Of a stretch of 32,999 nt of DNA, positions 6,731 to 28,375 are shown piece after piece (the stretch's first letter is position 1; the number at the start of each line of letters is the position of its first letter). The notes under the pieces were generated by a model. That model was not told the DNA's origin and searched no databases. It saw nothing but the letters and a program-made list of their open reading frames with translations. Origin of the DNA: a virus. Its lineage: Duplodnaviria > Heunggongvirae > Uroviricota > Caudoviricetes. The translations under genes were made by a program, and so were the position numbers. Location: IMG/VR virus record IMGVR_UViG_2703718851_000003. One strand, given 5' to 3'.

Positions 6731-6929
6731 TGTCCTGATTTGTACTCACTCATTTTCCGACTGACAATTTACATAGCCCAAACGCTATCAAATCTGACAG
6801 TCTGCTTTGGGTAAACTGATAATGGGCAGAGCTTTGTATGGCTAACTTCAGCATGATACCTTACAGTCAAGCTGACAAAAGGCGGAATGATTATTCGTTG
6901 ATACACATCCTCCTGTAAGGAAACAAAGC

Positions 6930-7700
6930 ATGTATAAAGAACTTATAGAACAGAGACTGAATGAGGCAAAAGCCGCCAGAGCTGCGCTGAGCAAGACTAA
7001 TGGTGTAATTGTCGAAAAAACACATAACCCTGACCGCGGACTGTATCTCGTTAATTATGCCAATTTACTTATGAACAGGCAGATAGACATCTTCGATGAT
7101 GCGCTTCTCCTCCTCGAAAACGAACGATACCAAAGCGCTTGTATTGTTAGCCGAGGAATGATTGAAACTCATGCCTTCTCACGACTCTTAAACAAGAAAG
7201 TAGAGAAAATTTTGACTACCCAAAATGGCCACGCAAGTGTAGATAACGCTATCGAAGTTATATTGAACTTTACGAATAGTTCTCGATTTAAAAAGTCAGA
7301 GCAAGAAAAGATTCAGAAAGGAGTATTTGACCCGAACGACTACATGTTTACTGAGGAGGCTAAATATCGTTTTGAAAACCTACTTGCTGTCAGTATGCAT
7401 GTGATGACTGCTTTACGCGAACTCTATAAAGATGAGATGAAGCAGACTAATCAGATGGAAAGTGATTTTGAACTGACTTATGACATACTTAGCGAATATG
7501 TTCATCCTTCACAAACGAGCATCTACCACTACTACACACCTGAAACCCACTTAGTTCCTACTTCAGTTGGTAATATTCATGCTTATGTGCATGCTCAGCT
7601 ACAATGTGTGAGAGCGCTACTTTTCATATTAGAAGCAAAGAGTCAACATTATTGGTCTACACAGTTAGCAAATGAGATGACCAAACGAGCTAAAGAGTAA
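6930..7700 (+). CDS. AT-rich accessory protein of unknown function at the Z/fun locus (opposite strand to the tail genes)
   Basis: 256-aa ORF with AAGGA Shine-Dalgarno 8 nt before the ATG; visibly AT-rich; occupies the slot between FI and G where P2 carries the non-essential Z/fun gene. Homology to Fun itself cannot be confirmed from memory. Confidence 0.75.
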   Translation: MYKELIEQRLNEAKAARAALSKTNGVIVEKTHNPDRGLYLVNYANLLMNRQIDIFDDALLLLENERYQSACIVSRGMIETHAFSRLLNKKVEKILTTQNGHASVDNAIEVILNFTNSSRFKKSEQEKIQKGVFDPNDYMFTEEAKYRFENLLAVSMHVMTALRELYKDEMKQTNQMESDFELTYDILSEYVHPSQTSIYHYYTPETHLVPTSVGNIHAYVHAQLQCVRALLFILEAKSQHYWSTQLANEMTKRAKE

Positions 7701-7890
7701 GGCCTAAGCCCTGCAATGTGTTTATTTGAAAAATATTTCAATTTTTTCTTTGTATGCTGTAAATGACCTGAGCCCCTCTGACCAGAGAGCCTTGATGTTA
7801 TCAATGTCCGCTCTTGGCACAGAGCGGACTGTCAGATTAGGGGTTACTCTGTGTTATAGATATGTGAGCTCACACCAGAGTTTATACAGC

Positions 7891-12940: not shown

Positions 12941-13726
12941 ATGGTCAGCTATAATGTGACTAATGTGTGGGGGCTAATCGTTTTTTTCCTTTGTAGCTTT
13001 GCAGTATTAGCATTTTTTAGCTTTGGTAAAAGCAACCTTATGAGGCTTATTGCACATTATTTCAATTTTGGATATTCAGACAAAAAATTAAAAAGACTTG
13101 ACCGCGAGTGGCGCGACATTCAACTATTTAAAATAATTAACGGAATCAATGTATCAGGCATTGAAAATGTGAGAATGATACAGCAGGGACTGATTGATGG
13201 AAAACTAAAAACATCGTATTTTTTCCTTACTCGCATCTGGGGTGACACAACAAAACCACCACACATAATTAAAACAATAATTGTAATTCTGACCAGTATT
13301 TTTTACATTCTCCTCGCATGTTACATACACAACAAACAATCCGTTATAGTAAGGGATGCCATAGGCATACCATATAAAAACATGATGTACTATGTTTATA
13401 GTGACAAAGTTCTTTTATCCTTCAAAAATAAAGCAGTTGAATTTAATAAAACTTATAGCCTTGCCGATTGCAAGAAACTGCAAAACGTATTTATAAAAGA
13501 CACACTTCCTGAGATCGCCTGCAATAAGCTCTTACAGCTAAACGAGGAGGACTCCGAATGGTTAAGCCAGGAGATTAAAGATAATAACAGTCACAAAAAA
13601 GCATTATTAATACTATCCCTCGTCTATTTCACTTCAGGTCTGGTTATATTCCTGTCATATACAAAATTCTTTTACGCCAATAAGAAGGTTTTAGAATACA
13701 AAGCATCAAATAAAAATCACTCATAA
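12941..13726 (+). CDS. AT-rich predicted membrane protein (three hydrophobic segments) at the orf30 locus
   Basis: 261-aa ORF with a strong AAGGAG Shine-Dalgarno 7 nt before the ATG; hydrophobic stretches VWGLIVFFLCSFAVLAFFSF, IIKTIIVILTSIFYILLACYI, ALLILSLVYFTSGLVIFLSY; opposite strand to the flanking V and S genes. Confidence 0.8.
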   Translation: MVSYNVTNVWGLIVFFLCSFAVLAFFSFGKSNLMRLIAHYFNFGYSDKKLKRLDREWRDIQLFKIINGINVSGIENVRMIQQGLIDGKLKTSYFFLTRIWGDTTKPPHIIKTIIVILTSIFYILLACYIHNKQSVIVRDAIGIPYKNMMYYVYSDKVLLSFKNKAVEFNKTYSLADCKKLQNVFIKDTLPEIACNKLLQLNEEDSEWLSQEIKDNNSHKKALLILSLVYFTSGLVIFLSYTKFFYANKKVLEYKASNKNHS

Positions 13727-19998: not shown

Positions 19999-20171
19999 TG
20001 TCAGGAGTCCTGAATAGTGATTAGAGGAGTCACATGTCGGCATCAGTTTCCCGACGATGCGCATCCTCCGCCATCAGTCCCGGATGGCTTATCACTGACA
20101 CAACAGCACCTTAGCGAATCGCGGGGCGCGACTCAGTAGCCTTGCCGTGTATTCATCACGGCGAGGTATTC

Positions 20172-21944
20172 ATGACCATCACCACAGACACCACTCTTTT
20201 ACACGACCCGCGTCGTCAGGCGGCGCTGCTGTACTGGCAGGGGTTTTCCGTGCCGCAGATTGCCGCCATGTTGCAGATGAAACGCCCGACGGTGCAGAGC
20301 TGGAAACAGCGCGACGGCTGGGACAGCGTTGCCCCCATCAGCCGTGTCGAAATGAGTCTGGAAGCGCGGCTGACCCAGCTCATCATCAAACCGCAGAAAA
20401 CCGGCGGTGACTTCAAGGAAATTGACCTGCTGGGACGCCAGATTGAACGACTGGCACGGGTAAACCGTTACAGTCAGACCGGCAACGAGGCAGACCTTAA
20501 TCCGAACGTCGCTAACCGCAACAAAGGCGGGCGGCGCAAACCGAAAAAGAATTTTTTCAGTGACGAGGCCATCGAAAAGCTGGAGCAGATTTTCTTTGAG
20601 CAGTCTTTCGAATATCAGCTGCACTGGTATCGCGCCGGGCTTGAGCACCGCATCCGCGATATCCTGAAATCCCGCCAGATTGGCGCGACGTTTTATTTTT
20701 CCCGCGAGGCGCTGCTGCGCGCCCTGAAAACCGGCCATAACCAGATTTTTCTGTCGGCCAGTAAAACGCAGGCGTATGTGTTCCGCGAATACATCATCGC
20801 CTTTGCCCGTCTGGTTGACGTTGACCTGACCGGTGACCCGATTGTCCTGGGCAATAACGGTGCAAAACTGATTTTTCTCGGCACCAACTCCAACACCGCA
20901 CAGAGCCATAACGGCGACCTGTACGTCGATGAGATTTTCTGGATCCCGAATTTTCAGGTACTGCGTAAGGTGGCATCAGGTATGGCCTCACAGAGTCACC
21001 TGCGCTCGACCTATTTCTCCACCCCGTCCACGCTGGCGCACGACGCCTACCCGTTCTGGTCGGGTGAACTGTTCAACCGGGGACGCGCCAGCGCCGCCGA
21101 ACGCGTGGAAATCGACGTCAGTCATAACGCCCTTGCCGGAGGTCTTCTCTGTGCGGACGGCCAGTGGCGGCAGATTGTCACCATTGAGGACGCCCTGAAA
21201 GGCGGCTGCACGCTGTTCGACATTGAGCAGCTCAAACGCGAAAACAGCGCCGACGATTTTAAAAACCTGTTCATGTGTGAATTTGTTGACGACAAGGCAT
21301 CGGTGTTCCCGTTCGAGGAGCTGCAACGCTGCATGGTCGACACACTGGAAGAATGGGAAGACTATGCGCCGTTTGCCGCCAATCCGTTCGGCTCCCGCCC
21401 GGTATGGATTGGTTACGACCCGTCACACCGTGGCGACAGCGCCGGATGCGTGGTGCTGGCACCGCCGGTGGTGGCCGGTGGCAAATTCAGAATACTTGAG
21501 CGTCACCAGTGGAAAGGCATGGACTTTGCCACCCAGGCTGAATCCATCCGCAAACTCACCGAAAAATACAACGTCGAATACATCGGAATTGATGCCACCG
21601 GCCTCGGTGTCGGCGTGTTCCAGCTCGTGCGCTCGTTCTATCCCGCCGCGCGTGATATCCGCTACACGCCGGAAATGAAAACCGCAATGGTGCTCAAGGC
21701 AAAAGACGTTATCCGCCGTGGCTGTCTGGAATACGACGTCAGCGCCACCGACATCACCAGCTCGTTTATGGCTATCCGCAAGACCATGACCAGCAGCGGA
21801 CGCAGCGCCACCTATGAGGCCAGCCGCAGCGAGGAAGCCAGCCACGCCGACCTCGCCTGGGCGACCATGCACGCCCTGTTAAATGAGCCACTCACCGCCG
21901 GTATCAGCACCCCGCTGACATCCACCATTCTGGAGTTTTACTGA
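20172..21944 (+). CDS. P: Terminase large (ATPase) subunit P
   Basis: Track ORF trimmed to the ATG at 20172, giving 590 aa (MTITTDTTLLHDP...); GAGG Shine-Dalgarno; length as P2 gpP. Confidence 0.9.
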   Translation: MTITTDTTLLHDPRRQAALLYWQGFSVPQIAAMLQMKRPTVQSWKQRDGWDSVAPISRVEMSLEARLTQLIIKPQKTGGDFKEIDLLGRQIERLARVNRYSQTGNEADLNPNVANRNKGGRRKPKKNFFSDEAIEKLEQIFFEQSFEYQLHWYRAGLEHRIRDILKSRQIGATFYFSREALLRALKTGHNQIFLSASKTQAYVFREYIIAFARLVDVDLTGDPIVLGNNGAKLIFLGTNSNTAQSHNGDLYVDEIFWIPNFQVLRKVASGMASQSHLRSTYFSTPSTLAHDAYPFWSGELFNRGRASAAERVEIDVSHNALAGGLLCADGQWRQIVTIEDALKGGCTLFDIEQLKRENSADDFKNLFMCEFVDDKASVFPFEELQRCMVDTLEEWEDYAPFAANPFGSRPVWIGYDPSHRGDSAGCVVLAPPVVAGGKFRILERHQWKGMDFATQAESIRKLTEKYNVEYIGIDATGLGVGVFQLVRSFYPAARDIRYTPEMKTAMVLKAKDVIRRGCLEYDVSATDITSSFMAIRKTMTSSGRSATYEASRSEEASHADLAWATMHALLNEPLTAGISTPLTSTILEFY

Positions 21945-22978
21945 TGAGTAAGAAAAAAGGGAAAACACCGCAGCCAGCGGTGAAAACAATGACTGCCAGC
22001 GCCCCGAAAATGGAGGCATTCACCTTTGGTGAGCCGGTGCCGGTACTCGACCGCCGTGATATTCTGGATTACGTCGAGTGCATCAGTAACGGCAGATGGT
22101 ATGAGCCACCGGTCAGCTTTACCGGTCTGGCAAAAAGCCTGCGTGCTGCCGTGCATCACAGCTCACCGATTTACGTCAAACGTAATATTCTGGCCTCAAC
22201 GTTTATCCCGCACCCGTGGCTTTCCCAGCAGGATTTCAGCCGCTTTGTGCTGGATTTTCTGGTGTTCGGTAATGCGTTTCTGGAAAAGCGCTACAGCACT
22301 ACCGGTAAGGTCATCAGACTGGAAACCTCACCGGCAAAATATACCCGCCGTGGCGTGGAGGAGGATGTTTACTGGTGGGTGCCATCCTTCAACGAGCCGA
22401 CACCTTTCGCGCCCGGCTCCGTGTTTCACCTGCTGGAGCCGGATATCAATCAGGAGCTGTACGGCCTGCCGGAATATCTCAGCGCCCTTAACTCTGCCTG
22501 GCTGAATGAGTCGGCCACGCTGTTCCGCCGCAAGTATTACGAAAACGGCGCACATGCCGGATACATCATGTACGTCACCGATGCCGTGCAGGATCGCAAC
22601 GATATCGAAATGCTTCGCGAAAACATGGTGAAGTCGAAAGGCCGCAACAACTTTAAAAACCTGTTTCTCTACGCCCCACAGGGAAAAGCCGACGGTATTA
22701 AAATTATCCCGCTCAGTGAAGTGGCAACGAAGGACGATTTTTTTAATATCAAAAAAGCCAGCGCCGCAGACCTGCTGGACGCGCACCGCATCCCTTTTCA
22801 GTTGATGGGCGGCAAGCCGGAGAACGTCGGGTCGCTGGGTGATATTGAGAAAGTGGCAAAGGTCTTTGTCCGCAATGAGCTTATCCCGTTACAGGACAGG
22901 ATCCGCGAGATAAACGGCTGGCTCGGTCAGGAGGTCATCCGCTTTAAAAACTACTCACTGGACACTGACAACGGCTGA
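21944..22978 (+). CDS. Q: Portal protein Q
   Basis: 344-aa ORF; ATGA overlap with the P stop; followed by a terminator and cos; length as P2 gpQ. Confidence 0.92.
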   Translation: MSKKKGKTPQPAVKTMTASAPKMEAFTFGEPVPVLDRRDILDYVECISNGRWYEPPVSFTGLAKSLRAAVHHSSPIYVKRNILASTFIPHPWLSQQDFSRFVLDFLVFGNAFLEKRYSTTGKVIRLETSPAKYTRRGVEEDVYWWVPSFNEPTPFAPGSVFHLLEPDINQELYGLPEYLSALNSAWLNESATLFRRKYYENGAHAGYIMYVTDAVQDRNDIEMLRENMVKSKGRNNFKNLFLYAPQGKADGIKIIPLSEVATKDDFFNIKKASAADLLDAHRIPFQLMGGKPENVGSLGDIEKVAKVFVRNELIPLQDRIREINGWLGQEVIRFKNYSLDTDNG

Positions 22979-22983
22979 ACATC

Positions 22984-23005
22984 GCCGCCTGCGGGCGGCT
23001 TTTTT
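22984..23005 (+). terminator. Rho-independent terminator downstream of Q
   Basis: gccgcc-tgcg-ggcggc stem-loop followed by six T, starting 6 nt after the Q stop. Confidence 0.85.
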
Positions 23006-23147
23006 ACACCCCGTCATCACGCCCTCACACGCTCACCACCGCACAAAACAGCCCGCATACACACCAACGCCCCGGCGAACAATCCAAACGCCATCACGAC
23101 GCGCTCAGACGCTGAAAAAATAAAATCAGCACCACCGCCAGCGCGCA

Positions 23148-23166
23148 GTGCTTTCCCCGCCTCGCC
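23148..23166 (-). other. cos cohesive-end sequence (19 nt, P2-type)
   Basis: The minus strand reads GGCGAGGCGGGGAAAGCAC, which matches my recollection of the P2 cohesive end; it sits directly beyond Q, where cos lies in P2. Confidence 0.7.
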
Positions 23167-23322
23167 CGCCCGCTTCGTGGGGCTGTTTTAATGCAGTTGC
23201 ATGAACACTCCAAGAGCGCGCCAGCACTGGCGGCGCCCACACGTAACGGGGAAGGAAAACGCATGCGATTCGATGCAGTAATGCATGCGGAGCTGAAAAT
23301 GGCAGAAAATACTGAAAAACGC

Positions 23323-23352
23323 ATAAAAAACCGGCATTCAGGTTGCCGGTTT
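23323..23352 (-). terminator. Rho-independent terminator on the minus strand
   Basis: Minus strand AAACCGGCA-acctgaa-TGCCGGTT followed by TTTTTT; about 18 nt after the stop of the 33-aa hydrophobic ORF. Confidence 0.7.
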
Positions 23353-23370
23353 GAGTCAGCTTCATTGTGG

Positions 23371-23472
23371 TTACTTGTCGCGCAATGCGCCAATAATACT
23401 GGTAAGGCAACAAGTGGCAACAATCAGCAAAAAAACCGTCGTCCACGGATTTTCATAAACGAGAGATAACAT
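23371..23472 (-). CDS. Candidate 33-aa hydrophobic membrane peptide (MLSLVYENPWTTVFLLIVATCCLTSIIGALRDK)
   Basis: Below the ORF-track size cut-off; found by translating the minus strand. Single transmembrane-like helix, terminator right after the stop, weak and distant AGGA ribosome-binding site. Confidence 0.3.
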   Translation of the reverse strand: MLSLVYENPWTTVFLLIVATCCLTSIIGALRDK

Positions 23473-23488
23473 ATTGATAAAGATCCTT

Positions 23489-23620
23489 TTATTTGTTCAT
23501 TCTGATGTGGTTTAAAAGGTGTTTGATAACGACCGTAAGCTCATCTTTACTGGCTTGCTCGACCATTTTTTCGGTGTAGCTTTCCACTTCGCGGGAACTC
23601 AGGTCGTTATTTGAGGCCAT
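23489..23620 (-). CDS. Candidate small hydrophilic protein (43 aa from ATG 23620; 64 aa if started at 23683)
   Basis: In-frame portion of track ORF 23489..23770 that does not overlap the divergent 145-aa gene; ribosome-binding sites weak; coding status uncertain. Confidence 0.25.
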   Translation of the reverse strand: MASNNDLSSREVESYTEKMVEQASKDELTVVIKHLLNHIRMNK

Positions 23621-23681
23621 TACAGTGAGTCTCTTTGCCCAGTCGGCATAAGGGTCTTTAATTGATGAAAGGGAATTATGC

Positions 23682-24119
23682 ATGTCCAAAAACCTCGAAT
23701 TATTTAACCAGCAGACGGCTGAAATCTTTGCGGTGCTATGGGATAACTTTCCTGTACCACAAGTCATCACCTACAAAAAATTTAACGCCGCGTTACCTGA
23801 TGACTACTTTGACCAACTTAACTCACCGGAAATGAAAGCACTGAATCAGTTGCGTAGTGTGGTTGATGGCACATTCACTTTCCTAAGCGAAAACGGCTAT
23901 ATTCTGTACGGAACAGACCATCAGACCGGTTTTCATGATGTGCGCCTGACCGAGAAAGCACTCGCGGTGCTCAACAAAAAACCCGAAGCACTTGGCGGTA
24001 ATGAAACGATGGGAGATAAAATTATCAGTGCAGTAAAAGACGGGACTCCAGGTGTCATTGCTGGAGCAGTGACAAACCTGTTGACTCTTGGTGTTAATTT
24101 TGTGACGTCAGCTTCATAG
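23682..24119 (+). CDS. Hypothetical 145-aa protein with a C-terminal hydrophobic tail (accessory cargo)
   Basis: ATG start with AAGGG Shine-Dalgarno 8 nt upstream; no recognisable motif; C-terminus GTPGVIAGAVTNLLTLGVNFV is hydrophobic; convergent with the RT gene. Confidence 0.6.
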   Translation: MSKNLELFNQQTAEIFAVLWDNFPVPQVITYKKFNAALPDDYFDQLNSPEMKALNQLRSVVDGTFTFLSENGYILYGTDHQTGFHDVRLTEKALAVLNKKPEALGGNETMGDKIISAVKDGTPGVIAGAVTNLLTLGVNFVTSAS

Positions 24120-24145
24120 CTAACTACTTTCTGAGGTTTCTAATC

Positions 24146-24188
24146 AACGCCGCCTGCACCGAAAGTAAATTCCTGCACTGGCGGCGTT
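24146..24188. other. 9-bp inverted repeat (AACGCCGCC / GGCGGCGTT) with about 25-nt loop between the convergent 145-aa gene and the RT gene
   Basis: Read from the sequence; no U-run on either side, so terminator function is uncertain. Confidence 0.4.
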
Positions 24189-24243
24189 ACTAGCGCCAAA
24201 GTTATTTTATTTATTGATGCTATTATGCAATATATTCAATATG

Positions 24244-25194
24244 TTAATTTGCAGTATTAGCCTTTAAAGTAAGCACCTTAGATTTGTAACGTTGCTCAAT
24301 CACTCCCATTGAATGCAAACGACCAAAGAGCTTTTTGGCAATGATTGTTTCTCTCGCATTTTCGGCGTCTTTAATTATTTTCCAATAATCTATTTCCCTA
24401 GCCATCAAAAAATGCTGCTCATTCCTAACTTTTAATGCATTGCCTAATACAATAACTCCAGTTACCAACTTAGGCTTATCTCTGGCATATAGTTTTGTTT
24501 TCGTTGGGTGTATAACATGCCCATGCTTATTAACGATCTTACGAATTACAGCGCAGAACAATCGATTTACGTTACTACCTGAAAAAGTGAGATCATCAAC
24601 ATAAACAGTCATGTTAACTCGTAACTTTTGGCAAAGTTGATATATTTCACCAAACATTCTTGAATTTGCAAAATATGCCAACGGCATACTGATGCGACTA
24701 CCTGTTGGCAATCGGTCATGACAAGTACATATGTGGGACAAAACATCAGCAACATCAGATGACATTTTCATCACCGAAAAGAAAAAAGAAAATATCATCC
24801 CTCTTGTAGTTGATGGAAAAAAAGCTTTAATATCTGTTGTCATCATCTTTTCATTATTAAGATGAGCTTTAGCATTCGTCACATTAGAGCACTTCTTCTT
24901 CCCTGAGTGCAGATATTCTGGCAAAGCAATCCGCGATAACAAACTTGCAATTCGTGTATGTACAAGTTCTAGTTTTTCTAAAGGCTTTTGTATTTTTCGT
25001 GCTTTCCCTTTTTTAGAAAGCTGCTCAAAAACGGAATAGTTTCCTTCATCTTTTCTCAAAGAGTATAAATCATCAAGACTAACACAAAGCAAATTCGCCA
25101 GTTTTCTTTTACTTTTGAGTTTATAAAATGGCGAATCCATTATGTCATAAGATTTATTTTTAGTATTAACTTTAAGCTTTTTCCGTTTTTTCAT
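24244..25194 (-). CDS. Reverse transcriptase, short retron-like type (no C-terminal effector domain)
   Basis: 316-aa ORF with RT motifs in canonical order: NAKAHLNN, DIKAFFPS (motif A), LPTGSRISMPLAYF (motif B), YVDD (motif C), then KLVTGVIV (the VTG triplet typical of retron RTs). Pattern resembles the Ec86 retron RT as I recall it. Confidence 0.85.
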   Translation of the reverse strand: MKKRKKLKVNTKNKSYDIMDSPFYKLKSKRKLANLLCVSLDDLYSLRKDEGNYSVFEQLSKKGKARKIQKPLEKLELVHTRIASLLSRIALPEYLHSGKKKCSNVTNAKAHLNNEKMMTTDIKAFFPSTTRGMIFSFFFSVMKMSSDVADVLSHICTCHDRLPTGSRISMPLAYFANSRMFGEIYQLCQKLRVNMTVYVDDLTFSGSNVNRLFCAVIRKIVNKHGHVIHPTKTKLYARDKPKLVTGVIVLGNALKVRNEQHFLMAREIDYWKIIKDAENARETIIAKKLFGRLHSMGVIEQRYKSKVLTLKANTAN

Positions 25195-25492
25195 TTTTAT
25201 TACTTACCCACTCCAGAACATCCAGAACTTTACCGGCTAAATTTAAACGCAATCGCTTAGACAAACGGCCTTGCGTGCCTAATGATTCCGAAAAGAATAC
25301 TAAAGAGGATACTGGTATGTCGAAATGGGAGGCGTAACGCTCTAAGACTTCAATCGACGGTGACCAAACTCCGCTTTCAAGCGATACTATTTTGTCTTTT
25401 GGAATACCTAAAGATGAAGATAACTCAACTATTGATTCTTTATGGTATTGCCTTATTAAACGAAGGGCTTTATGTAACATAGGCAACTCCAT
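25172..25492 (-). CDS. Xre/Cro-type helix-turn-helix protein, overlapping the RT start (start may be the ATG at 25480, GGAG ribosome-binding site)
   Basis: 106-aa ORF; HTH segment ...ESIVELSSSLGIPKDKIVSLESG...; 23-nt overlap with the RT ORF suggests translational coupling. Confidence 0.75.
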   Translation of the reverse strand: MELPMLHKALRLIRQYHKESIVELSSSLGIPKDKIVSLESGVWSPSIEVLERYASHFDIPVSSLVFFSESLGTQGRLSKRLRLNLAGKVLDVLEWVSNKNEKTEKA

Positions 25493-25516
25493 GCTATTGA
25501 AACTAGGGAGGACGCA

Positions 25517-25672
25517 TTACTCATCACCCCCTTCGAAGTAGTCCAGTGCTCGAGTAACTAAATCAAACAGTCTAATACCCCATTTGATTAATTTCCAAGC
25601 GTAACCAGCCCACTTTTTCAGGTTTGACTTGTTCTGCGCCTGCTGTTCGTTGGTTAATTTATCATTCTTCAT
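25517..25672 (-). CDS. 51-aa small protein (MKNDKLTNEQQAQNKSNLKKWAGYAWKLIKWGIRLFDLVTRALDYFEGGDE), first ORF of the RT operon
   Basis: Internal ATG of track ORF 25517..25909 preceded by a strong AAGGAG Shine-Dalgarno at 6-nt spacing; the Shine-Dalgarno is embedded in the 3' arm of a hairpin. Confidence 0.5.
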   Translation of the reverse strand: MKNDKLTNEQQAQNKSNLKKWAGYAWKLIKWGIRLFDLVTRALDYFEGGDE

Positions 25673-25980
25673 GATTTGCTCCTTATGCCCATAGTGTGCA
25701 AACGGTATGTCTGCTCCAACACTATGGTTCGCCCTCATAAGGATGAGATTGAACAGCACTAGCCCCCTGCTCCACGAACCCTTGGTCGCCCAAAGGGTTC
25801 GAATACCCATACGCCATACCTCCTGATCCTGTGACTCCTGTCGCTGGCAGGGGCGTTGCGCGGGGTAAGTGTTAGAAAGCGTTAACTTTCCACGGGTAAA
25901 AATACCCAATTGATGGCGATATATCTCACTAACTAACCAATGTTTGCATCATAACAAGTAAACCGTTGTATTTGCTCCCC
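25673..25980 (-). ncRNA. Candidate structured non-coding RNA / leader of the RT operon (possible retron msr-msd-like or DRT-type template RNA)
   Basis: Series of stem-loops on the minus strand: GGGTA-TTTT-TACCC, GAAAG-TTAACG-CTTTC, an 8-bp stem at 25776..25800, and a composite 7+8-bp hairpin at 25681..25742. 12-bp inverted repeat GGTTTACTTGTT (25964..25953) / AACAAGTCAAACC (25633..25621). No protein-coding potential seen. Confidence 0.35.
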
Positions 25981-26008
25981 CTGTATATGATATTTTTTCA
26001 TATAAAAC

Positions 26009-26037
26009 AAATATATAGTAACTTAAAGGCATATCAA
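26009..26037 (-). promoter_or_regulatory. Candidate sigma70 promoter for the RT module, about 45 nt downstream of the A stop
   Basis: Minus strand TTGATA (-35, 26037..26032), 16-17 nt spacer, TATATT (-10) in an AT-rich block. Confidence 0.35.
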
Positions 26038-26080
26038 TGCGACATGGATATGCTTTCATTGCATTGAATTTTAAAGTGTT

Positions 26081-28375
26081 TTACATGAAAAATGACACTT
26101 CATCTTGAAATCCGAACCACTCATTAGTAACCATATACGTGAATTTTTTCCCGTCATAATTTACGGTTGCCCCACGCGCCAGCGCCTCAATCTCCCATCG
26201 CTGAGGCCTGATACCGTTCTGAGCAAGGTCAACGCGGATACGGGTAATTTGCATTCGTTCCGACCGGGTCAGTCTGGCCGATGGCGCTATTTCATGTGGT
26301 TTTAACGGGCTTCCGTTTCTTTGCTGGCGATTTGGTCTTCTCAGTCCGTGTTTTAATGCACCCCTGAGCGCCCTCACAACCTCCGGGTCATTCCATTCGA
26401 TAACACCGTCATCTACCAGATTAAGCACTGCTGCGGCGTGTTCAGAAGGTGTGGGAGCCGGTAACGAAGCATCACTGCTGGCAGGCTTTCCACAGTTATT
26501 GACAGGACTCCGAGGCGCGGCGATGCCGCTTTTTAAAGTCAAAGGCTCAACGACCGGCACTTTCGGCACAATGCGCCAGTCCGTGGTTCTGGTGATATGA
26601 ATATGACGCGCGCCGAGATGCGGCGCGTAAATGCCGACCACTCTCTCGACTTCTTCCTCGTACTCGTTAACGTCATCCGACGGGCTACGGGCGACCCTGA
26701 CAGTCTGACAATCGCGCGGAACATTTGCCCCACCCTGCGCGCTGATATACAACGCAAAATCACCACTGTCTGCGGCGGCGCGTGCAGCCTCGACGCGCTC
26801 GTCAAACTCATCAGCAATGCTGACGCCGCGAGGCAATTTGCGTAGTTCACGGTAAGCCCCCATTGTCGGCAGGCCAACCGTTTTAAATTGCGGGATGCGC
26901 CACGTTGACGCCCATGCGGTAACAGCCGCCGCTGTGTCTTTCAGCGGCCTGCCGGTATCGTTATCGAGCTGACCATCCAGTGCATAGCCGTCGATGTTTT
27001 TTGAGATGTATTTCGCGATATACCCCGCAGCACCGCCCCGGTTAAGGTGTTTCGCCTGAAAACGGTTTCGCGCGGCTCCTCTTTCGTCGCCATCCTCTTT
27101 GAGCGCGTAGCGACGCATGATTTCGATAATCTGGTTACGCTGGCGCGGATTACAAAAAAGCATCATATGCCAGTGCGGCGTTCCGTCGTGGTGTGGCTCG
27201 ACGACACGCAAACCGTAGACCTGTAAATCATTATCCTTGAATGCCGTGCGCATCAGGCTCCAGATACGGCAGAGATAACGCTGCGCATCCTTTGGATTAA
27301 ATGCCTCATCGTTCCAGCCGTGATTAAGCTGCACGGTTTTACTTTCGCCTTTTCCGACCTGACGTGTCGGGTGATACTTTGACGGCGCGGTCAGCGTGAT
27401 AAACATCCCCACATCACCCTCTGCGGCGGCGTAACGCTCAATACCGGCAATGGTGTTCATCAGCTCCATCCGGCGAATTTCAGGATTAGAAATACTGCCC
27501 ATCACCTTACTGATAAGGTCGATGCGCTCGCCGGTTTCCCTGTTTTCGAGGTCACACGATTTAAGAAATTCCAGATTTGCCTGGCGGCGCGCACGCACAT
27601 CACGAATGGCATGTTTACTGGCATAAGGAGAACGGTCTTTATTGACCTCCCCGACAGCTATCAGTAACGCCTCATGCCAGCGCATACGCTGGCCTTTAAG
27701 CTGATGAGTCCACCACTCATCGTTAAACAGGCGGGCAATGGCAGAATATGCCTGCCTCGTGGTCATCTGTCCTTTACGGTATTTTTTCCAGTAGAGAGGG
27801 GAAATATTGAAAGCACGTGCAGCGCCAGCAACATGACCATACAGGTGAGCCTGCGCCTCATCCGTAAACAGCGATTCTTTTTCGCCATGCGCATCCACCC
27901 AGGCATCGCTGAGTTCCTCATACATCATGAAAAGCTGCGATGAGATACGGGCGGCAAACTTTTTCAGCTCCTTGTCATTCATTCCCGGCAGGCGCGCATA
28001 GTGGTCACGCTCTGCCAGAAACAGCAACGACGCGTCGGTGTTCATTTCATGGCGCTGATTCACACGCTCAATGCGCGGCCATAAACGACGCTGAAAAGTG
28101 GATGTGAGGAAATAAAACCCGTGCACCGGGCTTTTATTGCGCCGGATGTAGTCATAGCGTGAAGTAAACAGCGAGCGCAAAAAGTAAGGCAGGCGGTTAA
28201 TCGTGGATAAAACACCTTGCACCTGACGCATCTCGTCACGTGTAAGGGGTCTTTCGCGCCCGACGGCCTCGCGTGGCGCGTTCCATGCATAAGCACCGGT
28301 AAACGCCTTACCGGTGCCTGCAGCAAATGCTGACGGAGGTACGCAGGTGTATTGCTCCTGGAAAGAATGACTCAT
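26081..28375 (-). CDS. A: Rolling-circle replication initiator A
   Basis: 764-aa ORF (P2 gpA is about 761 aa as I recall); last gene of the early operon; ATGA overlap with the upstream PP-loop gene. Confidence 0.9.
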   Translation of the reverse strand: MSHSFQEQYTCVPPSAFAAGTGKAFTGAYAWNAPREAVGRERPLTRDEMRQVQGVLSTINRLPYFLRSLFTSRYDYIRRNKSPVHGFYFLTSTFQRRLWPRIERVNQRHEMNTDASLLFLAERDHYARLPGMNDKELKKFAARISSQLFMMYEELSDAWVDAHGEKESLFTDEAQAHLYGHVAGAARAFNISPLYWKKYRKGQMTTRQAYSAIARLFNDEWWTHQLKGQRMRWHEALLIAVGEVNKDRSPYASKHAIRDVRARRQANLEFLKSCDLENRETGERIDLISKVMGSISNPEIRRMELMNTIAGIERYAAAEGDVGMFITLTAPSKYHPTRQVGKGESKTVQLNHGWNDEAFNPKDAQRYLCRIWSLMRTAFKDNDLQVYGLRVVEPHHDGTPHWHMMLFCNPRQRNQIIEIMRRYALKEDGDERGAARNRFQAKHLNRGGAAGYIAKYISKNIDGYALDGQLDNDTGRPLKDTAAAVTAWASTWRIPQFKTVGLPTMGAYRELRKLPRGVSIADEFDERVEAARAAADSGDFALYISAQGGANVPRDCQTVRVARSPSDDVNEYEEEVERVVGIYAPHLGARHIHITRTTDWRIVPKVPVVEPLTLKSGIAAPRSPVNNCGKPASSDASLPAPTPSEHAAAVLNLVDDGVIEWNDPEVVRALRGALKHGLRRPNRQQRNGSPLKPHEIAPSARLTRSERMQITRIRVDLAQNGIRPQRWEIEALARGATVNYDGKKFTYMVTNEWFGFQDEVSFFM

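Follow-up and report, generated by a model that had tools for sequence, protein, structure and literature searches.

A predicted Vpa2-lineage Type VI retron and a divergent gene pair at the cos-to-A hotspot of a P2-like prophage

What does a P2-like prophage carry between cos and gene A when old and tin, which stand there in P2, are absent? The question is raised by the virus record IMGVR_UViG_2703718851_000003 (Caudoviricetes), a stretch of 32,999 nucleotides (nt) that was analyzed at its full length and is called the window here. A sequence-only reading of this DNA had marked positions 23167 to 26080 as a variable region without old or tin, holding a reverse transcriptase (RT) operon, a 145-amino-acid (aa) gene and small open reading frames (ORFs) as unrelated cargo. 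We consider it very probable that the old/tin slot has been exchanged for a Type VI retron, which would work by a mechanism like that of Retron-Vpa2, together with an independent divergent gene pair.

The window holds a P2-like prophage in an orientation reversed relative to the P2 map, and the following landmarks define the locus.

20142 to 21944, plus strand: terminase gene P, to the left of cos
21944 to 22978, plus strand: portal gene Q, to the left of cos
23148 to 23166: cos, 19-nt cohesive-end sequence, the exact reverse complement of P2 cos GGCGAGGCGGGGAAAGCAC; left landmark of the hotspot
23196 to 26104: replaced segment of 2909 bp, standing in for P2 30300 to 33545 (blastn against P2)
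26081 to 28375, minus strand: gene A (replication nickase), 764 aa, Pfam Phage_GPA 7e-124; right landmark of the hotspot

Position 23167 is the first base past cos, and 23167 to 26080 is the exact interval from cos to the stop codon of A, as the sequence-only reading had it. For comparison with P2 (NC_001895), the right and left ends of the P2 sequence were joined at cos before the blastn search. Homology to P2 extends over 20000 to 23195 at 97.5% identity and over 26105 to 28342 at 96.4%. Because the homology blocks end at 23195 and resume at 26105, the segment between them replaces P2 30300 to 33545, a region annotated in P2 with orf91, tin, old and the old promoter. The left junction lies 29 bp past cos. 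The right junction falls within gene A, whose homology to P2 breaks off at 26105, 21 nt short of the stop codon; the final ~7 codons (26084 to 26104) are unlike those of P2, and the protein has 764 aa versus 761 in P2. The altered 3' end of A and ~60 nt downstream of it are common to the retron-bearing E. coli groups.

The window has no relative of Old, Tin or Orf91: a tblastn search of its full length with the three P2 proteins returned nothing at E < 0.1. The best values, 0.54 for Old (an ATPase-TOPRIM protein of 586 aa) and 0.15 for Tin, belong to short chance matches. The segment has a GC content of 0.401 (0.345 in the RT gene), compared with 0.516 for the window, 0.559 for P and Q and 0.538 for A. 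Only 0.8% of all 2909-bp intervals are equally low in GC, and all of these overlap the replaced segment, which is the lowest-GC 2.9-kb stretch. The lack of old and tin, the AT richness and the unrelated cargo were all part of the sequence-only reading and have withstood the tblastn, windowed GC and P2 alignment checks, the last of which showed that the segment is not conserved and bounded it at 23196 to 26104.

The locus is the cos-proximal accessory hotspot of P2 (old/tin or 'TO' locus), bounded by gene A on one side and by cos and the portal gene Q on the other: its flanks are 96 to 97.5% identical to P2, its interior is unrelated, and other P2-like phages have different cargo (for example vbhT/Fic, DUF4209 or DinI) between the same flanks. 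The A-to-cos hotspot, holding retrons and other defense systems, was catalogued in 2022 by Rousset et al. (PMC9122126). Judged by homology, old and tin are replaced at this cos-to-A accessory locus by two unrelated modules. Module 1, the retron, occupies about 24200 to 26104 on the minus strand, and module 2, the divergent gene pair, extends from 23196 to about 24200.

What kind of system is the RT operon? Its parts are as follows.

24244 to 25194, minus strand: retron RT, Type VI, 316 aa; PADLOC RT_VI 4.1e-105, 278 of 279 profile positions
25172 to 25492, minus strand: Cro/C1-type helix-turn-helix (HTH) protein, 106 aa; PADLOC HTH_VI 7.7e-31
25517 to 25672, minus strand: small protein (SP), 51 aa, MKNDKLTNEQQAQNKSNLKKWAGYAWKLIKWGIRLFDLVTRALDYFEGGDE; phrog_15287 1.6e-38
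25498 to 25977, minus strand: hybrid RNA (hyRNA), composed of a non-coding part (25673 to 25977), the embedded SP coding sequence and a 3' inverted repeat
26010 to 26037, minus strand: candidate sigma-70-like promoter, TTGATA, 16 nt, TATATT; consensus scan, 10 of 12 matches

The order non-coding RNA (ncRNA), SP, HTH protein and RT is that of a Type VI retron, in which SP is toxic and a long transcript bears both the template and the SP coding sequence (Zhang et al., 10.1101/2025.10.22.683967; Garcia-Rodriguez et al., 10.64898/2026.04.27.721009). The RT of the prophage scores 349 bits with the PADLOC model RT_VI and at most 152 with the others, the next-best family being RT_III-A at 5e-45, and it also has a Pfam RVT_1 match. 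Retron RTs are defined by the motifs NAxxH, YxDD and VTG, and all three can be read in the 316-aa ORF, as NAKAH, the catalytic YVDD and VTG. The protein is 100% identical to a deposited NCBI E. coli 'reverse transcriptase family protein', and relatives from V. parahaemolyticus are 58% and 54% identical. The 3' end of the HTH gene overlaps the start of the RT gene by 23 nt, and the HTH protein has weak Pfam matches to HTH_3, HTH_19 and HTH_31. All genes are complete, and other genomes hold copies that are 100% identical. By every computable criterion the operon belongs to the Vpa2 lineage of Type VI retrons, with all its parts in place; PADLOC RT_VI and HTH_VI and the homology of its hyRNA have given a name to what had been reported as an RT operon only.

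An RT at a P2 hotspot need not be a retron RT. It could belong with Abi-P2 and the defense-associated RTs (DRTs), which would make it a non-retron enzyme with untemplated or protein-primed DNA synthesis. The RT of P2-EC30 (Odegrip et al. 2006), which blocks phage growth, does lie at this very locus, as cited in PMC9122126 and PMC9508834, and the two have in common that they are RT-family genes, associated with defense, at the same P2 hotspot. However, Abi-P2 is of another RT class and is a single-gene, untemplated and protein-primed system, whereas the RT described here belongs to RT_VI, carries the NAxxH and VTG motifs and is accompanied by an HTH_VI partner, SP and a homologous structured RNA. 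The best 25 of its 37 PADLOC matches are all to retron RT models, and neither Abi nor DRT is among them. NCBIfam holds no Type VI model, and its matches to the RT are sub-threshold and all to other retron families. Profile matches and architecture are both those of a retron. An Abi-P2- or DRT-like enzyme is extremely unlikely, and the PADLOC profiles together with the hyRNA homology effectively refute it.

SP is the predicted toxic effector of the retron, by analogy with the characterized Type VI systems. An AAGGAG ribosome-binding site (RBS) lies 7 nt upstream of its start. An intact ORF of 47 to 55 aa is found at the same position in the homologues examined, including those of Yersinia, Serratia, Dickeya, Providencia, Vibrio and Acinetobacter, and the ORF is conserved among relatives whose RTs are 45 to 100% identical; in the Aeromonas locus (L035) the SP ORF was not called. 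A longer ORF of 130 aa (25517 to 25909), annotated in phage P22H1, was rejected in favor of the 51-aa SP plus ncRNA, because in its upstream part it is the RNA structure that is conserved and because the record of a Klebsiella phage and the distant relatives back the short ORF only. The C terminus of SP, F-E-G-G-D (FEGGDE), matches the end of the Vpa2 SP, ...LFDGGDT, and the SP of a second V. parahaemolyticus retron (L028; ...NQQAQ...WFEGGE) is intermediate between the two.

How close is the element to Retron-Vpa2? The contig that encodes the 54% identical RT (L031) also encodes MSNNTQRDQQVNIIKPTKREKRQKQFKRFLKALSWLYRIWYWFNFLLGLFDGGDT just upstream of its HTH gene. Table S3 of the Sen3 paper gives this sequence for the Vpa2 SP, so that L031 can be equated with Retron-Vpa2. 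The two elements share the order ncRNA-SP-HTH-RT, with RTs 54% and HTH proteins 48% identical, and their hyRNAs are homologous (nhmmer 3e-15), having in common the conserved helices, the sequestration of the RBS and the closing repeat at the 3' end. The SPs are of similar size (51 versus 55 aa); in both, the C-terminal half is basic and hydrophobic and closes with F-(D/E)-G-G-D. Otherwise they cannot be aligned. The elements also differ in the sequence and length of the variable stem-loop of the RNA, in having no common 7-nt repeat and in their location, which for Vpa2 is a Vibrio chromosomal site by hipA and rpoD rather than a P2-like prophage hotspot. Retron-Eco12, a Type VI relative of Vpa2 from E. 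coli, defends against lambda-vir, and no baseline multicopy single-stranded DNA (msDNA) was detected for it (10.1101/2025.10.22.683967). Eco12 may be the same element as the one described here, or a close variant of it.

If the operon is a retron, it should be headed by a structured RNA. The 516-nt stretch from 26005 to 25490 on the minus strand folds at -174 kcal/mol, with a minimum free energy z score of -6.15. A nucleotide profile of the RNA region detected Retron-Vpa2 with the nhmmer value given above and L028 at 1e-24, and the match extends from a conserved box at the 5' side as far as the CUCCCUAGUUUCAA repeat past the SP stop. In 13 close relatives taken from IMG/VR, the non-coding part of the RNA varies less than the SP coding sequence, and 13 of 145 consensus pairs show a compensatory change, compared with 7.3 +/- 1.7 in shuffles. 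We then relied on a broader alignment (n = 14), in which the close relatives were extended with Yersinia, Serratia, Dickeya, Providencia, Aeromonas and two Vibrio loci. RNAalifold retained 84 pairs in this set; 35 of them covary, versus 17.5 +/- 2.8 in shuffled alignments (0 of 500) and 10 to 19 in controls with slid partners, and 92.5% of the cells are paired versus ~45% when the partners are slid. The structure that hides the SP start region is under selection. Its elements are listed here in the 5'-to-3' order of their first strand, ending with the variable arm.

25928 to 25923 with 25503 to 25498, minus strand: closing helix, covariation-supported
25767 to 25763 with 25510 to 25506, minus strand: long-range helix, covariation-supported
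25758 to 25751 with 25648 to 25641, minus strand: helix reaching into SP, covariation-supported
25743 to 25736 with 25687 to 25680, minus strand: riboregulator (25680 to 25743), anti-RBS UCCUUAUG with the SP RBS CAUAAGGA; 4 of 8 pairs covary
25727 to 25689, minus strand: hairpin enclosed by the RBS helix; 11 covarying pairs
25640 to 25635 with 25516 to 25511, minus strand: helix, covariation-supported
25498 to 25516, minus strand: 3' inverted repeat after the SP stop; pairs with 25640 to 25635, 25767 to 25763 and 25928 to 25923 and closes the hyRNA
25806 to 25864, minus strand: variable long stem-loop; base conserved and paired (CCCG with UGGG), interior variable in sequence and length

The helix that sequesters the RBS is invariant among the close relatives. 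The variable stem-loop has an 18-nt insertion in three loci (L014 to L016) and longer forms in Yersinia and Serratia. The msDNA of Vpa2 maps to the long stem-loop of the msr-msd arm (10.1101/2025.10.22.683967), and by analogy we infer that the stem-loop at 25806 to 25864 is a candidate msd, the template for reverse transcription. A search of Rfam at a permissive threshold over 22900 to 26300 gave a chance match only (BTnc060, E 0.48, 25 bits against a gathering threshold of 229).

The hyRNA contains three copies of the heptamer GGGUAUU. They start at 25907, 25808 and 25580 on the minus strand and lie in a 5' hairpin, at the base of the variable stem and in the loop of a hairpin within SP. All 13 close relatives retain two or more of them. 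Conserved 7-nt direct repeats have been described for Type VI hyRNAs (10.1101/2025.10.22.683967). Because no repeated 6- or 7-mer is common to the RNA described here and those of Vpa2, L028 or Acinetobacter, we make no claim that ties GGGUAUU to the published repeats.

How might the retron act? The composition of the operon, its homology, the intact catalytic motif and the selected RNA are features of this locus, while msDNA, the toxicity of SP, defense and its trigger are carried over from Vpa2, for which msDNA-dependent derepression and Red triggers have been reported (10.1101/2025.10.22.683967). We hypothesize that a promoter just downstream of gene A would drive the hyRNA with its template and embedded SP, followed by the HTH gene and the overlapping RT gene. 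The HTH protein would restrain reverse transcription, and the RBS of SP would be locked in the conserved helix. An infecting phage with recombination or anti-RecBCD functions (such as lambda Red or Gam-like proteins) would cause msDNA to accumulate, and the accumulated msDNA would open the riboregulator. SP would then be translated and arrest the growth of the infected cell, an abortive infection that would shield the lysogen population and the prophage. The position of the candidate promoter (26010 to 26037) fits the 5' limit of conservation at ~25977. An imperfect palindrome or hairpin, AAAGCATATCCATG tcg CATTGATATGCCTTT, lies right after the A stop at 26024 to 26058 on the minus strand (-10.3 kcal/mol) and overlaps the -35 box of the candidate promoter; it could be a terminator of the early operon or an operator for the HTH protein.

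The same set of genes could also work as in Retron-Sen3 of Salmonella (cl2075 lineage), which reacts to lambda Red and to RecBCD inhibition (10.64898/2026.04.27.721009). In that mode SP and an RT-dependent single-stranded DNA (ssDNA) would be made constitutively, the HTH protein would be a protein antitoxin, loss of RecBCD activity upon infection would free the toxin, and msDNA would have no translational role. Sen3 is enterobacterial too and has the same SP-HTH-RT order, and its structured ncRNA over SP, with a sequestered RBS and a long-range inverted repeat around SP, has its counterpart here. However, Sen3 has constitutive ssDNA, controls its toxin post-translationally and carries an SP of another family: the cl2075 SPs have 79 aa and end in ...DWMK, whereas the SP of the prophage, with 51 aa and its FEGGDE end, resembles that of Vpa2 (55 aa, FDGGDT). 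The hyRNA aligns directly to Vpa2, its covarying RBS-sequestering helix argues for translational control, and the E. coli relative Eco12 lacks detected baseline msDNA, as does Vpa2. We rate a Sen3-like mode lower because of the size and C terminus of SP, the RNA homology and the lack of baseline msDNA in Eco12, and regard it as rather unlikely.

Might the operon do nothing for defense at all? P2 hotspots also house non-defense genes, for example partition systems and toxins (PMC9122126), and the operon could be an inactive remnant or a phage-regulatory cassette in which the HTH protein is a repressor and the RT incidental. This is very unlikely: none of the three ORFs is broken, the catalytic YVDD is preserved, protein-identical copies are present in other genomes, and the retron RNA is under structural selection. 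Moreover, an anti-phage phenotype of the abortive-infection kind, with SP as the toxin, has been shown for Vpa2, Eco12 and Sen3, with two cloned type members defending against lambda (10.1101/2025.10.22.683967; 10.64898/2026.04.27.721009).

Several points weigh against a Type VI retron with a Vpa2-like mechanism next to an independent gene pair, the interpretation that we prefer. The formation of msDNA, the toxicity of SP, defense and the trigger are all attributed to the retron of the prophage by analogy, and the mechanism of Vpa2 need not transfer, given that Sen3 works post-translationally with constitutive ssDNA. SP resembles the Vpa2 SP in its C-terminal motif only (BLASTP E 0.034). Support for the promoter is weak, as the number of sites found in the scan equals the shuffle expectation. 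Rfam has no family for this RNA and hence offers no independent curated model. Finally, nothing assigns a function to module 2.

Module 2 consists of two divergent genes and a spacer next to cos, and it is set off from the retron by a strong hairpin.

23682 to 24119, plus strand: 145-aa protein; phrog_2266 2e-61
23489 to 23683, minus strand: 64-aa gene; phrog_2454 1.4e-40 over residues 30 to 93 of a longer ORF
24146 to 24188, both strands: strong hairpin where the 145-aa and RT genes converge; plus strand -22.7 kcal/mol (z -3.9), minus strand -27.9 kcal/mol
23196 to 23488, minus strand: non-coding spacer by cos, downstream of the 64-aa gene, with two terminator-like hairpins
23436 to 23466, minus strand: hairpin, -9.6 kcal/mol, followed by a U run
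23320 to 23352, minus strand: hairpin, 9-bp stem and U6 run, -12.9 kcal/mol; canonical terminator

The 145-aa gene had been taken for an orphan, which it is not: besides its PHROG match, it has 70 homologues at 59 to 99% identity across Enterobacterales, none of them with a Pfam domain. The AlphaFold2 model (mean predicted local distance difference test score 84.7) combines a winged-helix-like domain at the N terminus with a hydrophobic and glycine-rich helical hairpin at the C terminus, and fold searches with it returned generic winged-helix matches only. The hairpin could be a membrane-active effector under the control of the winged-helix domain or of the small partner. That partner, the 64-aa gene, adjoins the 145-aa gene in every locus that has the latter and is annotated identically in phage Midge and in the Klebsiella phage. 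The ATG codons of the two genes overlap in the palindrome ATGCAT (23681 to 23686), and as a consequence the promoter of each must sit within the other. This arrangement of the starts is also conserved in Midge, the Klebsiella phage and the IMG/VR loci. Neither gene matches PADLOC, and we offer only as a doubtful suggestion that the pair is an undescribed two-gene exclusion or defense module of P2-like phages.

Of the small ORFs seen in the sequence-only reading, SP and the 64-aa gene are real genes, whereas a 92-aa ORF (23191 to 23469) was rejected, as its PHROG match covers only the first 47 residues and its frame is lost in Midge and relatives. The hairpins fared better; folding energies bear out those at 23320 to 23352, 23436 to 23466 and 24146 to 24188, and the first is conserved in Midge, the Klebsiella phage and two IMG/VR loci (L013 and L015). 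The same four elements also conserve a set of repeated ATGCA/TGCAT motifs (cgcATGCgattcgATGCAgtaATGCATGCgg) and a GCCAGC.CTGGCGG palindrome at 23230 to 23300 in the spacer.

Do the two modules travel together? At least 80% of the segment is present in 29 of 5426 complete E. coli genomes, with a best identity of 98.9%, and the Klebsiella phage ST147-VIM1phi7.1 has the whole arrangement at 82% identity. Phages Midge and FSL SP-004 have the gene pair but lack the retron, and the retron occurs with other neighbors in P22H1, where a 454-aa gene adjoins it, and in further IMG/VR loci. Taken together, these two kinds of loci mean that the segment, which had been treated as one cargo, is a mosaic made up of two or more modules that assort independently, split at the 24146 to 24188 hairpin; the latter is probably a bidirectional terminator and the boundary between them. 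In more than 18 P2-like loci the arrangement is A-retron-X-cos, with three different modules as X, and the retron there always lies directly downstream of A. The retron lineage is also seen next to gpA (Yersinia, L032) or the portal gene (Serratia, L036) of P2-like phages. Contexts unrelated to P2 (L028, L031 and L033 to L035) are hipA/rpoD in Vibrio, TatD/QueC in Dickeya, FdhD in Providencia and ParA/Hok in Aeromonas. Its presence in P2-like and unrelated contexts indicates that the module moves between types of elements. These relatives were drawn from IMG/VR and contig look-ups; a scan of genome contigs with the single RT sequence gave two distant loci only.

Two further loci of the prophage had been counted, with the cos-to-A region, as three independent cargos.

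6930 to 7700, plus strand: 256-aa DUF5677 ORF, low GC, on the strand opposite to the tail genes
12941 to 13726, plus strand: orf30-locus gene, P2 orf30 at 98% amino-acid identity, phrog_2407, low GC

The count was overstated. The Z/fun locus is indeed replaced, with 988 bp (6810 to 7797 of the window) standing for P2 15366 to 17445 and fun(Z) absent, and the DUF5677 ORF in it matched no PADLOC, PHROG or NCBIfam family. By contrast, the orf30-locus gene, being P2 orf30 at 98%, is backbone relative to P2 and makes no difference in cargo.

In summary, the locus is a well-supported ordinary instance of a known hotspot and a known retron type. The hotspot with its retron cargo (2022), the mechanism of Type VI retrons (2025-2026) and a deposited protein identical to the RT were all known before. 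RefSeq names the genes 'reverse transcriptase family protein', 'helix-turn-helix domain-containing protein' and 'hypothetical'. With such generic names, and with no Type VI model in NCBIfam, SP and the hyRNA go unannotated, and the coordinates given here show how both can be annotated. The element is a natural, P2-borne E. coli relative of Retron-Vpa2 and is useful for asking whether msDNA-dependent derepression generalizes. It shares with old and tin the position between A and cos, and like them it would be a non-essential exclusion function expressed from the prophage, although there is no sequence relationship and Old, an ATPase-TOPRIM tRNA nuclease, differs from a system of RT, RNA and small toxin. 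Old kills upon lambda infection or RecBCD deficiency. That Old also fires under these conditions suggests, by analogy, that the slot may repeatedly recruit sensors of the same phage functions.

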